A stretch of 64,000 nucleotides of DNA, taken from Escherichia phage phiE142. The stretch lies in the sequence record NC_055709.1; one strand, written 5' to 3'. A program made the translations under genes and the position numbers. The notes under the pieces were generated by a model. The model was not told the origin of the DNA, did no database searches, and saw only the letters and a program-made list of their open reading frames with translations. Positions 19,975 to 63,531 of the stretch are shown piece after piece (position 1 is the first letter of the stretch; each line of letters opens with the position of its first letter).

Positions 19975-20397
19975 TTATTCCTTAAAATGTGCTTTCAACA
20001 TTTGATACAAAGACCATGCCTGGTCGTTATTTTCGATAGTAACTTTCATTACTGGGAATTCTGTGAAATCTTCTATCTGTTCTTGCTCTTCAGAAGCTTG
20101 GTACGGATTTTCCACTTCATCAAAAAACTCTGCTTCACTAGTAGAGAGCCAGATAAAGTTTTCATCAAGGATATCACCGCCTGTTGCGTATCCAACCATG
20201 CCAGTAGATGTCACAATTTTAGTAGGACGACCAAGATGGTCAACATCTAATACTTTAAATGGTTCCATGCCAAGACGTCGTGCATAAATCCCATTATCAG
20301 TGTGGTTTTTAATAAACTCTTCTTGGGCACGTTTATCTTTAAATTGGTACCATGAGTTAACGCGGAATTTATTAGCCATTAGTAAGTTTCCTTCCAA
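19975..20397 (-). CDS. Hypothetical early protein (140 aa; T4 goF position)
   Basis: Positional only. Confidence 0.45.
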
Positions 20398-20651
20398 TAA
20401 GTTGTACCATTTTCAGTGATTTCACGGAAGATACCATAGATAGGCATTTCATCACCGAGTTTTTCGTAAACGTAAACCACTTCAGTGTAGCATAAAAATT
20501 CAGTCCAGTTTTTCTGTACAACAACTAAATCAGGATTAAACAGAACATCTTCAAACTCATCGATGTTTGAATCAGTAGTTACGTTTTTAATGATTTGACG
20601 TTTCATAATATTCTCCTCTTGTTTTGATAGGTCTATAGTATCATAGACCAT
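20379..20651 (-). CDS. Hypothetical early protein (90 aa)
   Basis: ORF with AGAGGAGAA ribosome-binding site. Confidence 0.45.
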
Positions 20652-20663
20652 AGTTGTTGTACA

Positions 20664-21188
20664 TCATTTTAGCAAAATAAAATCAACTTGTTCTGCCAAT
20701 GAACGTCTAAACATTAATTGACAACTTCCGAGGATGAAATCAGGTGCTTCATAGACCGCGATGTAGTATCCTTTAGCTTTCAAGAGTTCAACATCCACCT
20801 GGTCATCAAACCATGCATAAACCGCGTCAACGCTTTCAAATCCAAAATAGAACCCTTGAGCCCAATCTTCACTCAATTCAAATGTGTGCTCAATTCTATA
20901 GTATCTTAAGATATTTTGTTCAAGGAGTTTGTCTTCATTTACAGTAGGACGATTAGGGACATTATAGTTGTCGCCGTGATGGTAGAAGTTACCTGAGATT
21001 ATTCCATGTTTATCAAGGAACTCCCATGTTTCTTCAGAGTTGTCGGTGCCCGACCAACCGTATGGCGAACGAGGTTCTTTATTCCAAGAGGTTTCCCAAA
21101 TTCTGACGGCTTTACCGTCTTCAATAGCAATTCCTGGTAATGATTCACGTTGAGTACAAAAACTACGTTCTACGCGGTAAACTAACAT
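20664..21188 (-). CDS. Hypothetical early protein (174 aa; T4 motB position)
   Basis: Positional only. Confidence 0.5.
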   Translation of the reverse strand: MLVYRVERSFCTQRESLPGIAIEDGKAVRIWETSWNKEPRSPYGWSGTDNSEETWEFLDKHGIISGNFYHHGDNYNVPNRPTVNEDKLLEQNILRYYRIEHTFELSEDWAQGFYFGFESVDAVYAWFDDQVDVELLKAKGYYIAVYEAPDFILGSCQLMFRRSLAEQVDFILLK

Positions 21189-21214
21189 ATTATTCTCCTC
21201 TGGTTGATATGGTT

Positions 21215-21243
21215 ATAATATCAAAACCAGAGGAGAAGTAAAC
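21215..21243 (-). promoter_or_regulatory. Sigma70-type early promoter-like element inside an inverted repeat
   Basis: Minus strand GTTTAC, 17 nt, TATTAT; 11-bp inverted repeat CTCCTCTGGTT/AACCAGAGGAG (21195-21235) brackets the -10 and contains the downstream ribosome-binding site. Confidence 0.5.
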
Positions 21244-21247
21244 AACT

Positions 21248-21667
21248 TTATGCGAAAGCCGCCGGGCTATATTTTTTAATTTGGAATTCAGGAACTACCA
21301 TGAACTGACCAGCGAAAACGATGTTATAAAGCTTAACACCATCTTCTACCCAACGGTCGCTAATAAATCCGGCGATTTGCTTAGTTTTCCATGGCGTTCC
21401 ATCGGTTGCCGCAGCAATAGTGAATTCGTGGTCTTTTTCAACAGAAACTGATCTGCATAGTCCCCATTTGAACGCTTTTTCTTCTGGTTCAATGAATTGG
21501 CTTGAGACGTAGCCAATGTTGCCATCAGCATCACGAACTTTAACTTGATGTGGACTAAAGAGTCCACAACTTACAGAAAGAACTTCAACCAACTTCCCAG
21601 CAACTTTAGAGCGAGAAGCAACAGGTACATATACGTAATCACCTGTAGAGAGATTTGCAATATTCAT
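21248..21667 (-). CDS. Paralogue family protein (139 aa)
   Basis: Shares SRSKVAGKLVEV N-terminal block and C-terminal GFISD.WVEDG.KLYNIVF.G.F.VV block with the next ORF. Confidence 0.55.
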   Translation of the reverse strand: MNIANLSTGDYVYVPVASRSKVAGKLVEVLSVSCGLFSPHQVKVRDADGNIGYVSSQFIEPEEKAFKWGLCRSVSVEKDHEFTIAAATDGTPWKTKQIAGFISDRWVEDGVKLYNIVFAGQFMVVPEFQIKKYSPAAFA

Positions 21668-21676
21668 AATAATTCC

Positions 21677-22162
21677 TTAAGCTTTACGAGGAGACACATA
21701 GCGAGTGATTTCAGATTCTTCAACAACTCGGAAGTCACCTAAGAATACAATATTGTATAGCTTTTTACCATCTTCAACCCATTGGTCACTAATGAAGCCA
21801 CACATAGTATCAGTTTTGCTTGGATAACCGTATTCATCGATGAAGTCAAATTCTTTATCAGTCTGGAATTCAACACCTTTACACAGGGCCCATTTGAACT
21901 GTACATTATGCTCTGTGGATTCAACTTTTTCTCTTGAAGCAAAAGCACTACTCACAGGCATTTCCAAGAACTTTGCACGAACATAAGCAAATTTGGTTTC
22001 CTGTGTCCCAAAACTAGGAATAATACGAACTTTTACCTCAGAATCTTCATCTTTAACGCCTTCTTTAAGTTGAATACTTACAACTTCGACCAATTTTCCT
22101 GCGGCTTTAGAACGAGATTTGTTAGATACGCGAAAGATTTCACCAATAATACCAAGATTCAT
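21677..22162 (-). CDS. Paralogue family protein (about 161 aa from internal ATG)
   Basis: Same conserved blocks; start taken at MNLGIIG with AGAGAGAGAAA ribosome-binding site, as the track N-terminus runs over promoter sequence. Confidence 0.55.
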   Translation of the reverse strand: MNLGIIGEIFRVSNKSRSKAAGKLVEVVSIQLKEGVKDEDSEVKVRIIPSFGTQETKFAYVRAKFLEMPVSSAFASREKVESTEHNVQFKWALCKGVEFQTDKEFDFIDEYGYPSKTDTMCGFISDQWVEDGKKLYNIVFLGDFRVVEESEITRYVSPRKA

Positions 22163-22224
22163 AATTTCTCTCTCTTTGTTTAAATTGAATTCACTATACT
22201 CCATCCATCCTTGGATGTACAACA

Positions 22225-22719
22225 TTAATTAAGGATATTAACCACAGCACTACGTGGAACTACACTAAAATCACCTGCATGAACAACGTTCAGAAGTTCA
22301 ACACCGTCTTCAATCCACTGGTCAGTTACCCATCCATTTACTGGACCTGTGAACGGGCGTCGAATTGAAACATATTTACACAGCAAATCAGTAGGCTCAA
22401 TAGGCTTAATCAGAGTACCGTACATACAAGCGATATCCATATCAATACAGATGTCTTTAACGGGTTCTACTTCTTCAATCAACAGTTCAAAGTCTGTGCT
22501 TGGAAGGGCGGTAGTAGAAATTGTACCATATGAATTTTTAATTTCTAAGAATAACCAAGGGCCTTCAGCTTGTTTGATGAAGTTAACAATAGTGAAACTA
22601 TTGCCTTGAGTGGCACCTAAAATTTCACAAAACTTTTCGTAAGCTCGCACTGAAGCACTGTACCAGTTGATTTGTTTTTCGTCTTTCAGGATGTAAGTAG
22701 CCGTAGTATTGATATTCAT
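22225..22719 (-). CDS. Paralogue family protein (164 aa, divergent)
   Basis: C-terminal block W.TDQWIEDGVELLNVVHAGDFSVV related to the two ORFs above. Confidence 0.5.
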   Translation of the reverse strand: MNINTTATYILKDEKQINWYSASVRAYEKFCEILGATQGNSFTIVNFIKQAEGPWLFLEIKNSYGTISTTALPSTDFELLIEEVEPVKDICIDMDIACMYGTLIKPIEPTDLLCKYVSIRRPFTGPVNGWVTDQWIEDGVELLNVVHAGDFSVVPRSAVVNILN

Positions 22720-22750
22720 AATGTTTTTCCTGTTTGGTTAAGATAGAAAG

Positions 22751-22781
22751 ATTATACTCCAACCATCCTTGGTTGTAAACT
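22751..22781 (-). repeat. 31-nt promoter cassette, copy 1 (identical to 63501-63531)
   Basis: ATTATACTCCAACCATCCTTGGTTGTAAACT on plus text; minus strand GTTTAC, 18 nt, TATAAT; spacer has internal palindrome CAACCA..TGGTTG. Confidence 0.6.
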
Positions 22782-22785
22782 GATT

Positions 22786-23463
22786 TTATCGCTGTTTTAC
22801 ACTTAACGGGTCAGGATTCTCAGGGACATCTTCAAGGCCAAGCGCATAACGCTGAGCATATTTTAACATCAAAATATCTTTAGCACAATCATGAATACTA
22901 TCATGGGCAACGAATCCTTTTAGCGTACCCATCGGTAATGGACACATACTTAATCCTCGTGTCAACGAGTAAGCTTCGATTGCCGTACGAATATCGCGTT
23001 GAGCCCAGAATTTAACCGGTTCTAATTTATCAGTATCAATCTCTGGTTCAAGAACACCTTCATCACGATAGAGATCACGAATCAAATCGACCAAGATCGG
23101 GAAGTCAAAGCTCATACCACGGCACCACATTTGCGATTTCCATTGGTCAACTTTATTAGCTCGACAATAATCTAAAAAGATTTTAATGCCTTCAAGCGTA
23201 GTGACATCGTCTTCAGACGGAGCCAGGTTTTTACGTGCTTCTGCTGATTGTTCTTTCCACCATTTCATAGTGGATTTAGCGAAAACTCGCTTCCCTTTTT
23301 GAGAAGCTAAATTAAATTTAATTCGCTTACCTCGTTGAACAAGTTCTTCAAATGATTCAACAACTTCAGGGTCGGAATTATATGCAATAACCGCCAGGTC
23401 AATAACAGCCGCTTTTGATGTATTGCCGAATGTTTCAAAATCTATAATAACATCAGTGCTCAT
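22786..23463 (-). CDS. dexA: Exonuclease A (DexA), DEDDh family
   Basis: 225 aa; IIDFETFG exo motif, FVAHDSIHDCAKDILM block as in T4 DexA. Confidence 0.8.
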   Translation of the reverse strand: MSTDVIIDFETFGNTSKAAVIDLAVIAYNSDPEVVESFEELVQRGKRIKFNLASQKGKRVFAKSTMKWWKEQSAEARKNLAPSEDDVTTLEGIKIFLDYCRANKVDQWKSQMWCRGMSFDFPILVDLIRDLYRDEGVLEPEIDTDKLEPVKFWAQRDIRTAIEAYSLTRGLSMCPLPMGTLKGFVAHDSIHDCAKDILMLKYAQRYALGLEDVPENPDPLSVKQR

Positions 23464-23472
23464 AATTTTCTC

Positions 23473-24786
23473 TCAAATAAAATGGACGTCAAAACGACCA
23501 CGAGTTGTGCCGACATACAATAGTTGTTTAGCTAATTCTGAATCGGCATAATGGATACACGGTGTATAAACAAAGGCCGTGTCAACAGACATACCCTGAG
23601 CCTTATGGAAGGTTGATACTGGTAGTGCCTTCACCTTAGTGAACATGCGTTTAGCATCCCAGAATTCGCTCCATGGGGCTTTACCACCTTTATTCCAGAA
23701 TTTATATGTTTCTGCTGTCTTAGCCAAAAACAAATTGAATTTATAAAGCTCTTCTTCAGAAGAAATAACCTTTATATCTTCGCGGATGTATTCTTCATCA
23801 TCCCCATATGTTTCTACTGTAAGATTCCAGTATCGTATCATATATTCGCCTGAAACACCACGTGCTTTAACGAATGTAGACGTTTCTACAGCATCTCGAA
23901 TACGAACGAATTGTCCGTTATTGAAAAGCATTTCGGTCATATTTTTGCCATCTAGCTTGTATGTCTTAGTAAATGGCTCTTGTAGAACAATGACTTCGTC
24001 TTTAATAAATGGCTTTTCTGTTTCAAGAAGTTTTCGGCGAATAATTGAATTTAACTTGTCCACCGACTTATTTGTGAATGCCATCATTCGATTTTCGAAA
24101 AGGTCTTCAGGAGTTTTAACGACATTAAAATAGTTCATCATATACGATTTAAGGTCTGTATATCCATGAACACCATGTCCGTCAACTACTTTATCATAAA
24201 TCCATTTGCCATTACGAATATCGGTCGCAACATCAATAATTGGTGCATTGCTACGTTTAACTTCTGTAAGGTTGCATTGCACGAAGTCTTTGTGAGTGAA
24301 GAAAGGACTTAGATATGCAGTGGATTCGCCGGGGTCGACCGGACGAATCTGACATCGGTCACCGATTCCAATTACTGTACACCATTTAGGGATACTAGCT
24401 AACATTATTTTAAACAGAGAACGGTCGCACATTGACGCTTCATCAAATAACAGTACACGACACAAGGCTAAGTCTGGAACCTTTTTCTGTTCAAATAATA
24501 CGTTTTCTTCGTATGTAGTTGGGTTGATTTTAAGAATGCTATGAATAGTCGATGCTTCTTGTCCAGCAAGTTTGCTTAGAACCTTTTTAGCAGCATGTGT
24601 AGGGGCTGCTAAAATAATACCTGATTCTCCAGAAGAAATAAGGGCTTCAACGATGAATCTAGTAAGAGTTGTTTTACCTGTACCAGCAGGTCCATTAATA
24701 GTTACGTGATGTTTCTTTTCTTTAATAGCTTTCATAACAACATTGAAGGCGTTTTTCTGGCCTTCAGTCAAATCATCAAATGTCAT
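23473..24786 (-). CDS. dda: Dda DNA helicase (SF1B)
   Basis: 437 aa MTFDDLTEGQKNAFN...GPAGTGKTT; matches T4 Dda throughout. Confidence 0.92.
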   Translation of the reverse strand: MTFDDLTEGQKNAFNVVMKAIKEKKHHVTINGPAGTGKTTLTRFIVEALISSGESGIILAAPTHAAKKVLSKLAGQEASTIHSILKINPTTYEENVLFEQKKVPDLALCRVLLFDEASMCDRSLFKIMLASIPKWCTVIGIGDRCQIRPVDPGESTAYLSPFFTHKDFVQCNLTEVKRSNAPIIDVATDIRNGKWIYDKVVDGHGVHGYTDLKSYMMNYFNVVKTPEDLFENRMMAFTNKSVDKLNSIIRRKLLETEKPFIKDEVIVLQEPFTKTYKLDGKNMTEMLFNNGQFVRIRDAVETSTFVKARGVSGEYMIRYWNLTVETYGDDEEYIREDIKVISSEEELYKFNLFLAKTAETYKFWNKGGKAPWSEFWDAKRMFTKVKALPVSTFHKAQGMSVDTAFVYTPCIHYADSELAKQLLYVGTTRGRFDVHFI

Positions 24787-63500: not shown

Positions 63501-63531
63501 CATTATACTCCAACCATCCTTGGTTGTAAAC
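63501..63531 (-). repeat. 31-nt promoter cassette, copy 2 (identical to 22751-22781)
   Basis: Same ATTATACTCCAACCATCCTTGGTTGTAAACT block; minus strand GTTTAC, 18 nt, TATAAT. Confidence 0.6.

Follow-up and report, generated by a model that had tools for sequence, protein, structure and literature searches.

An early-region trio of MotB-family genes in Escherichia phage phiE142, very probably the motB.1-motB-motB' block of Mosigviruses

The window analysed here comprises 64,000 nucleotides of Escherichia phage phiE142 (NC_055709.1), whose genome is, by sequence comparison, that of a T4-type Mosigvirus (RB69/phiC120-like); between positions 20600 and 23500 it is 99.3% identical in DNA to phiC120. 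Three adjoining minus-strand ORFs lie between dexA and cef (Table 1), exactly where an earlier note on this DNA had placed them. In phiC120 the three are annotated as hypothetical, MotB-like, and MotB-like, and the identical gene order was found in RB69, a20, FL18, Shf125875, and APCEc01. The dexA-cef region of T4-type genomes is early and dispensable, and the block, with one transcribed strand, is syntenic with T4, RB69, and phiC120. An Rfam scan of positions 20000–24000 gave no match at gathering score.

Table 1. Positions of the three genes and of the neighboring signals in the window.
Feature	Position	Strand	Description
ORF1	21248-21667	-	139 aa; second, compact motB paralogue
ORF2	21677-22225 mechanical ORF (182 aa); likely 21677-22162 (161 aa)	-	motB orthologue
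ORF3	22225-22719	-	164 aa; T4 MotB.1 orthologue
Early-type promoter match upstream of ORF3	22751-22779	-	TTTACA-17-TATAAT, consensus scan 11/12
Early-type promoter match directly upstream of likely motB start	22193-22221	-	TGTACA-17-TATAGT, 9/12
Hairpin at trio boundary	21193-21237	-	RNA fold -23.9 kcal/mol, z -5.66, 0/200 shuffles as stable
T4 motB.2 homologue	20664-21188		Next gene after trio; outside MotB family

Membership of the motB family (PF17613) was assessed from whole-protein scores against the Pfam gathering cut-off of 25 bits. All three proteins exceed it (ORF1 74.6, ORF2 180.2, and ORF3 37.3 bits), the match of ORF3 being limited to residues 84–159 (profile positions 78–153). ORF1 and ORF2 are 41% identical over ~135 residues of ORF1 (157 alignment columns, E 2e-28). 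BLASTP aligned ORF3 at the C-terminus only, both with ORF2 (E 3e-10, 41 residues) and with ORF1 (E 4e-11, 79 columns). Judged by these values and the family scores, the similarity is far above chance. The C-terminal block that it described, G[FW][IV][ST]D[QR]W[VI]EDG.[KE]L[YL]N[IV]V..G.F.VV, occurs in all three proteins, and the three-way alignment of the C-terminal domain (CTD) contains 17 invariant columns. The core of this domain, G[FWY][IV][ST]DQW[VI]E[DEN]G..L[YL]N.V, is present in each protein of the window and is invariant or nearly so in 40 MotB-type and 28 MotB.1-type sequences. When 1.84 billion representatives were searched exhaustively with an HMM profile of the three CTDs, only 28 clusters were retrieved. 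Two of these, both large (570 and 842 aa), are repeat proteins of the MucBP and Ig types in which the weak matches are scattered, and they were discarded as artefacts; the five others that were scanned carry PF17613, as eight more had in earlier searches.

The N-terminal half gave a different result. The motif SRSK.AGKLVEV, which the earlier note had assigned to all three proteins, is found in ORF1 and ORF2; ORF3 does not have it, its N-terminal half is unrelated, and just the C-terminal ~40–60 residues are shared with the other two. The PHROG assignments agree, with phrog_1671 matched by ORF2 (E 3e-69) and ORF1 (E 2e-49) and phrog_2333 by ORF3 (E 2e-82, residues 1–164). Since the N-terminal block is in two proteins only and the CTD in three, ORF1 and ORF2 are full-length paralogues and ORF3 is a domain-sharing relative. 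Of the idea of three tandem paralogues, the family kinship therefore stands, but ORF3 is an unrelated N-terminal domain (NTD) fused to the family CTD and not a diverged whole-gene duplicate. Taken whole, the locus is best explained, with high confidence, as the motB.1-motB-motB' block of Mosigvirus. The kinship is genuine but ordinary, because the family, the shared CTD, the idea of duplication, and the RB69-like multi-copy state are already published. Patterson-West et al. (2021) have reported that the CTD is common to MotB and MotB.1 while the NTDs differ and have proposed duplication, and RB69 carries two motB copies in addition to motB.1 (PMC7827196).

ORF2 is 59% identical to T4 MotB and consists of a KOW/SH3-like NTD with SRSKAAGKLVEV, a disordered linker (72–85), and the family CTD (AF2 model, mean pLDDT 78.7). 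Its product is most likely the 161-aa protein starting at the ATG at 22162, because homologues, T4 MotB included, begin at the position of M22, the ATGs further upstream are covered by the promoter match, and this codon is preceded by a ribosome-binding site (RBS) rich in purines, AGAGAGAGAAATT. The mechanical 182-aa reading (ATG 22225, overlapping the ORF3 stop), which overlaps the promoter match, was rejected for these reasons, and the 175-aa start annotated in phiC120 was dropped on the same evidence. ORF2 is also a mosaic, with a T4-like NTD (74% identity) and an RB69-like CTD (93%). ORF1 has the same two domains and both motifs in a compact form, from which a loop of the NTD and most of the linker between the domains are absent. 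Both proteins belong with MotB proper (PHROG 1671; "Category 1" of PMC7827196), having the KOW/SH3-like NTD with SRSK.AGKLVEV. ORF1 starts 9 nt past the motB stop, with an AAGGA overlapping that stop, and lacks a separate promoter; transcription together with motB and translational coupling to it are therefore probable. Copies of ORF1 at an identity of at least 80% occur in ~205 phage records, at two places per record; the third copy is missing from T4 and most Tequatroviruses. ORF1 may act as a compact second DNA-coating variant, and with its domains much closer together it may differ in the geometry with which it binds or bridges, or it could form mixed assemblies with MotB.

ORF3 comprises an unrelated NTD (residues ~1–84), a linker (86–106) with the short motif DMDIACMYGTLIKP, and a MotB-family CTD (~108–164). 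Its AF2 model has a mean pLDDT of 79.7, with residues 86–106 below 50. Intact T4 MotB.1 (P0131) aligns with it end to end at 51% identity (54% over 142 aligned residues), and ORF3 lies directly upstream of motB, as members of the MotB.1 subfamily do. By these sequence features it is a member of that subfamily (PHROG 2333; "Category 2" of PMC7827196), and a protein of its type was found in 739 records. Kim et al. [quoted passage not shown] In the same study, deletion of T4 motB.1 left burst size and latent period unchanged, and a reporter of RNA stability did not respond to T4 MotB.1; the protein used was the truncated reference form. ORF3 would combine a different, possibly RNA-binding, N-terminal module with the same C-terminal module.

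Two by-products concern reference annotations. The T4 reference motB.1 (119 aa, 13.8 kDa) contains a 1-nt insertion, an extra G, that is unique to AF158101/NC_000866 and absent in the other 13 T4, T4T, RB55, and RB59 records matching at 99% or above. T4 reference MotB.1 appears to be truncated by this single G, since the insertion in NC_000866 removes the last ~25 residues of the CTD, and the truncated 119-aa annotation was the basis of recent functional work. In the RB69 reference, two single-T insertions split motB.1 into ORFs of 132 and 29 aa, and the 29-aa "Category 3" peptide is, from its reading frame, a frameshifted MotB.1 tail. The trio adds nothing new in itself; its practical value lies in these corrections and in the question of domain roles.

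The genes carry signals that fit T4-type early genes, as judged from Sigma-70/T4-early-type promoter matches and the location in the early block. A 24-nt promoter core, ACAACCAAGGATGGTTGGAGTATA, occurs at 22753–22776, 22195–22218 (0 mismatches), and 63504–63527, with none expected by chance. In addition, a 48-nt direct repeat (22172–22219 and 22730–22777) is 75% identical, and the promoter match before motB is, on this likeness, a diverged copy of the promoter cassette of ORF3. No minus-strand intrinsic terminator was found within the trio in a terminator scan. The hairpin at the trio boundary encloses a promoter-like site, TTTACT-16-TATTAT (21242–21215), and the GAGGAG ribosome-binding site of the T4 motB.2 homologue, a cassette with a different location here than in T4, falls within its 3' arm. 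Duplication and domain swapping are the probable origin of the tandem array, and recombination at the repeated promoter and RBS cassettes has probably reshuffled it from phage to phage.

The function of the family has been studied with its founding member, T4 MotB. PMC6070864 and PMC7827196 describe this as an early host-takeover protein with toxicity in E. coli, nonspecific DNA binding, and a perturbing effect on H-NS. Tight nonspecific DNA binding and co-purification with H-NS and StpA, both from work on T4 MotB alone, are reported there together with altered H-NS footprints and the up-regulation of 75 host genes. MotB is described as highly abundant and is needed in large amounts (PMC7827196). 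By analogy, ORF2 would be made early and abundantly and would coat host and phage DNA without sequence specificity; it may then remodel H-NS/StpA-DNA complexes, so that H-NS-silenced genes are de-repressed and burst size rises modestly. Tight nonspecific binding is not guaranteed to transfer to ORF2, since ORF2 is acidic and T4 MotB is basic. The earlier note had proposed a host-takeover or anti-defence family; the early region and the T4 protein agree with takeover, but there is no evidence for a specific anti-defence function.

The same note took such duplication to be typical of families evolving under host pressure; if that means diversifying selection, the substitution rates do not show it. 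The three genes have intact frames and are kept across hundreds of phage genomes. Purifying selection acts on each, with pairwise dN/dS of 0.07–0.39 across the three (ORF3 0.07–0.39, ORF1 0.16–0.24), and these values show no arms-race diversification. A family diversifying in such an arms race, for anti-defence or host range, with each paralogue neutralising a different host defence allele, is improbable. In its favor, the early region that holds the genes is variable, the paralogues are strongly divergent, motB alleles are 79–82% identical in amino acids among Mosigviruses versus 97–100% for the flanking genes, and xenogeneic silencing by H-NS may count as a defence (PMC7827196). Every comparison nevertheless gave dN/dS in the range above. 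Where ORF2 and ORF1 diverge further among Mosigviruses, dS is raised as well and the differences form a mosaic by domain, such as that described for ORF2; this points to allele exchange and recombination and not to faster amino-acid change. Each paralogue type is itself kept across hundreds of phages, and no defence-specific phenotype is reported in the MotB and MotB.1 literature considered.

Redundancy, with all three proteins doing the same DNA-coating job and duplication serving to raise the amount of protein, would suit the bulk requirement for MotB and the retention of both domains and both motifs in ORF1 and ORF2. It is nonetheless unlikely, as these two are so far diverged in sequence and differ in linker length and charge, each lineage is conserved separately, the NTD of ORF3 is altogether different, and phages lacking the third copy, T4 among them, do without it. 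Decay of ORF1 and/or ORF3 into pseudogene remnants could be read from the disrupted motB.1 frame in the T4 and RB69 reference records, yet the T4 insertion is confined to the reference sequence, intact T4 MotB.1 (P0131) is present on 256 contigs, and the ORFs of the window are intact with dN/dS well below 1. Chance similarity is excluded by the E-values, and for this window the reading of decay or chance, which is scarcely credible, was set aside on the intact frames, the purifying selection, and those values.

There remains the motB.1-motB-motB' block as the preferred explanation, and within it the roles of the two domains. Net charge is +3 for the NTD and −4 for the CTD of ORF2, −3 for the CTD of ORF3, +5 for the NTD of T4 MotB, and −1 for the NTD of ORF1, which is not basic. 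AF2 models show two beta-rich domains and a disordered linker. For the MotB CTD, an OB-fold (cold-shock-like) DNA-binding domain has been proposed from HHpred (PMC7827196); in the present proteins this common domain is acidic, and as modelled it may be closer to an SH3/Tudor fold than to an OB fold. Against solved structures, ORF2 alone gave no match at E ≤ 1 by sequence, and profiles built from alignments of MotB and of MotB.1 yielded just noise at E ~0.9 (bL9, S28e, and staphylokinase). A BFVD fold search returned significant matches that were nearly all MotB-like or uncharacterised proteins of related phages, with no informative annotated neighbor. With its net negative charge in ORF2 and ORF3, the CTD is less likely to be a DNA-binding surface than a common module for targeting or oligomerisation, and the NTD, being basic in ORF2 and T4 MotB (pI 9.5–9.8), is the better candidate for DNA contact in these two proteins. 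The invariant acidic core DQW[VI]EDG would be the element common to all paralogues.

A tentative extension, which we regard as possible but doubtful, is that the trio forms a modular "adaptor" system and not three DNA-coating proteins, with an SH3/Tudor-like CTD in place of the proposed OB-fold DNA binder, interchangeable NTDs, and a roaming motif. The CTD would bring all members to one partner (for example an H-NS/StpA-DNA filament, RNA polymerase, or other family members), and the NTDs would give different nucleic-acid activities, the KOW-like basic type acting on DNA and the LSm-like type possibly on RNA. The roaming motif would be D[MF]D[IV]A[CS]MYGTL[IV]KP, a short linear sequence that changes position. 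If this were true, the complete 143-aa form of T4 MotB.1 would have to be used to repeat the work that gave negative results. In any case, charge and modelled fold suggest that it is worth examining directly which role each of the two MotB domains has.

Several known systems can be compared with the trio. ORF2 shares with T4 MotB (PF17613, PHROG 1671) both domains, the motifs, and the dexA-cef neighborhood; T4 MotB has a pI of 9.2, whereas ORF2 is acidic overall (pI 5.6) and is a mosaic. ORF1 is shorter than T4 MotB by ~25 residues of loop and linker and has no counterpart in T4. T4 MotB.1 (PHROG 2333) resembles ORF3 in the NTD-plus-CTD layout and in its site immediately upstream of motB but lacks the ~22-residue linker insertion that bears DMDIACMYGTLIKP. 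T7 gp5.5 and T4 Arn, which are H-NS antagonists, have the same presumed target, namely H-NS-dependent DNA organisation or silencing early in infection; according to PMC7827196 these two make direct contact with H-NS, whereas the association of MotB with H-NS requires DNA, and no relation of the trio to either in sequence or fold was found. The architecture of the boundary hairpin is like that of a promoter-early stem-loop (PeSL): the repeated early-promoter cores and the promoter-bearing hairpin that flank the gene cassettes here are reminiscent of the PeSL cassettes of T4-type phages (PMC2839356, PMC4122927). The RB69 locus, motB.1 / 29-aa ORF / motB / ORF010c (PMC7827196), provides the published precedent, with the same genus, order, and three family members; motB.1 is split in the RB69 reference and is one intact 164-aa gene in the window.

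ORF1, ORF2 and ORF3 lie in tandem in an early region devoted to host takeover and are genuine paralogues that have a domain in common. The 2.9 kb at 20600–23500 has 99.3% identity to Escherichia phage phiC120 (Mosigvirus, Tevenvirinae) and 94–98% identity to many RB69-like phages, and all genes in this part of the window are on the minus strand. The earlier note had located the three ORFs exactly and had ascribed to them common N-terminal and C-terminal blocks. The C-terminal block is indeed common to all three and highly significant. ORF1 and ORF2 aligned over nearly their full length (41% identity, E 2e-28), and ORF3 aligned solely through its C-terminus, both with ORF2 (E 3e-10, across 41 residues) and with ORF1 (E 4e-11). 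The three-way alignment of the C-terminal domain (CTD) contains 17 invariant columns, including D..W.EDG..L.N.V..G.F.VV. The N-terminal SRSK.AGKLVEV block is present in ORF1 and ORF2, which match phrog_1671 ('MotB-like transcriptional regulator'), and is absent from ORF3, whose N-terminal half matches a different family, phrog_2333 (E 2e-82). The proposed tandem paralogy therefore stands for a domain-sharing set in which ORF3 is a fusion of domains and not a diverged duplicate.

Coordinates of genes, promoter matches and the predicted hairpin, with the truncated T4 gene used for comparison
Feature	Position	Strand	Remarks
dda	23473-24786	-	first in transcription order
dexA	22786-23463	-	after dda
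TTTACA-17-TATAAT	22779-22751	-	near-consensus early promoter match ahead of ORF3
24-nt promoter core, three copies	22753-22776, 22195-22218, 63504-63527	-	first two flank ORF3
ORF3	22225-22719	-	after dexA
TGTACA-17-TATAGT	22221-22193	-	promoter match ahead of ORF2; diverged copy of ORF3 cassette
ORF2	21677-22225	-	after ORF3
ORF1	21248-21667	-	after ORF2
Strong predicted hairpin	21193-21237	-	-23.9 kcal/mol, z -5.7; downstream of ORF1
174-aa gene, motB.2-like	20664-21188	-	after ORF1
cef, goF, 39.2, 39.1, gene 39		-	in that order after 174-aa gene
T4 motB.1, truncated	NC_000866 3292-3651 + 150 nt downstream		compare window 22228-22330

Against Pfam PF17613 (motB, 'modifier of transcription'; gathering cut-off 25 bits), all three ORFs score above the threshold, at 74.6 (ORF1), 180.2 (ORF2) and 37.3 bits (ORF3). 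Judged by locus comparison with T4 and protein alignment, ORF2 is orthologous to T4 MotB (59% identity) and ORF3 to T4 MotB.1. The product of the 174-aa gene is the homologue of T4 MotB.2; it gave no match to PF17613 and has no relationship to the MotB family. T4 lacks a counterpart of ORF1. At ≥80% identity ORF1 is present in about 205 phage records, invariably as an additional locus next to motB; among them are Mosigviruses (RB69 ORF010c) and some Tequatroviruses, e.g., RB10 and Sf25. Patterson-West et al. (2021; PMC7827196) have grouped MotB homologues into categories with a common CTD and differing N-terminal domains (NTDs). One such homologue is T4 MotB.1, whose gene directly precedes motB; both genes were reported in 40 phages besides T4, and RB69 was described as having two motB copies, one motB.1 and one 29-aa peptide. 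Kim et al. (2025; PMC12152347) have reported an LSm-like fold in the MotB.1 NTD, common to GoF and Frd.2. In several database records these ORFs are already labelled MotB-like. Given these two papers and the annotations, the trio is a rediscovery. A CTD profile built from the three window proteins recovered only 28 clusters among 1.84 billion cluster representatives, 2 of which were rejected as repeat-protein artefacts, so the module is restricted to a small set of T4-like phages, in which it is combined with several N-terminal arrangements (140–250 aa).

The earlier note had also linked such duplication to evolution under host pressure; in the sense of diversifying selection, this is not supported by Nei-Gojobori estimates against nine related loci. 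The dN/dS values were 0.07–0.39 for ORF3, 0.14–0.30 for ORF2 and 0.16–0.24 for ORF1; all three genes evolve under purifying selection, with no decay, and this comparison gave no overall sign of diversifying selection. ORF2 and ORF1 diverge more among Mosigviruses than the neighbouring genes, and dS is raised in parallel (0.19–0.67 versus 0.05–0.15). The NTD of ORF2 has 74% identity to T4 MotB versus 62% to RB69 MotB, and its CTD has 93% identity to RB69-type MotB versus 49% to T4. The raised dS and this domain-wise pattern indicate that ORF2 (21677–22162) is a mosaic allele resulting from exchange by recombination. Some of the N-terminal arrangements joined to the CTD carry a short conserved motif, D[MF]D[IV]A[CS]MYGTL[IV]KP. 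In ORF3 it falls within the disordered linker (residues ~93–106, window 22402–22443), and in relatives of 162–250 aa (P0151, P0157, P0158, P0159, and P0167) it precedes the LSm-like domain. T4 MotB.1 does not have the motif, which may serve as a short linear interaction motif able to change position.

The T4 reference NC_000866 (the AF158101 sequence) contains one extra G in motB.1, ATTGGAAGAT versus ATTGAAGAT in the window and in another T4 assembly. The extra base shortens MotB.1 to 119 aa; downstream, the missing EDGVELLNVVHAGEYSVVPRSAVVAILN is encoded in the +1 frame, which continues the conserved CTD. A 121-nt search around the site gave 100% matches only to AF158101 and NC_000866; the other 13 records at 99% identity or above (T4 isolates, T4T, RB55, and RB59) are without the extra base. 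The intact 143-aa T4 MotB.1 (P0131) was found on 256 contigs. Kim et al. (2025) used NC_000866.4 and have reported MotB.1 as a 13.8-kDa monomer (PMC12152347); the 119-aa form has this mass. Compared with other Mosigviruses, RB69 motB.1 (NC_004928, 3877–4373) carries two insertions of a single T, which may reflect a sequencing error or a real lesion. The annotated 29-aa ORF LKTVVELLNVVHAGDFSVVPRSAVVNILN, the 'Category 3 peptide' of PMC7827196, is the frameshifted C-terminal end of this gene.

AlphaFold2 models built from family alignments (mean pLDDT 78.7 for ORF2 and 79.7 for ORF3) each contain two beta-rich domains with a low-confidence linker between them. The CTD was inferred as an OB fold by HHpred in 2021 (PMC7827196). 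It may instead be an SH3/Tudor-like barrel, as hinted at by the structural hits common to ORF2 and ORF3, which have only the CTD in common; however, the output does not name the matched domain, and the two NTDs likewise form small barrels. The pI is 9.2 for T4 MotB and 5.6 for ORF2, acidic as a whole protein. Net charge is +3 for the ORF2 NTD, -4 for its CTD and -3 for the ORF3 CTD; ORF1 is near neutral, and the invariant CTD core, DQW[VI]EDG, is itself acidic. By homology to the T4 experiments (PMC6070864, PMC7827196), ORF2 would be made early and abundantly, coat DNA and remodel H-NS/StpA-DNA complexes. DNA contact is more plausible through its basic KOW-like NTD, and the CTD common to the three paralogues could be a targeting or oligomerisation module. 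ORF1 would be a compact version from which the linker is almost absent, and ORF3 would couple a different, possibly RNA-binding NTD to the family CTD. We infer this division of labour; family, architecture, conservation and expression signals are documented here.

Translation of ORF2 most likely begins at the ATG at 22162 (161 aa), because this is where T4 MotB and most homologues start, the promoter match ahead of ORF2 covers the upstream in-frame ATGs and a purine-rich stretch lies ahead of 22162. The 24-nt early-promoter core ACA[AT]CCAAGGATGG[AT]TGGAGTATA is present in three copies in the window, with 0 expected by chance. These copies look like repeated cassettes of the promoter-early stem-loop (PeSL) type, which are thought to drive gene shuffling. 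ORF1 starts 9 nt past the ORF2 stop, which AAGGA overlaps, and the promoter scan found no match of its own, so ORF1 is probably co-transcribed and coupled with motB. The hairpin downstream of ORF1 encloses a promoter-like site and base-pairs through its 3' arm with the GAGGAG RBS of the motB.2-like gene. The RBS would be masked in read-through transcripts and free in internal-promoter transcripts. This gene is bracketed by 20-nt direct repeats (20604–20623 and 21186–21205; 90% identical) at RBS and ATG regions. The repeat also points to the ATG at 20606 (75 aa), and not 20651, as the start of cef. The motB.2-like gene lies downstream of the motB genes here and adjoins dexA in T4, RB10 and Sf25; the cassette has therefore changed place from one lineage to another by transposition. 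The hairpin resembles the PeSL cassettes that have been reported from T4-type phages (PMC2839356, PMC4122927), and such an architecture fits these differing positions.
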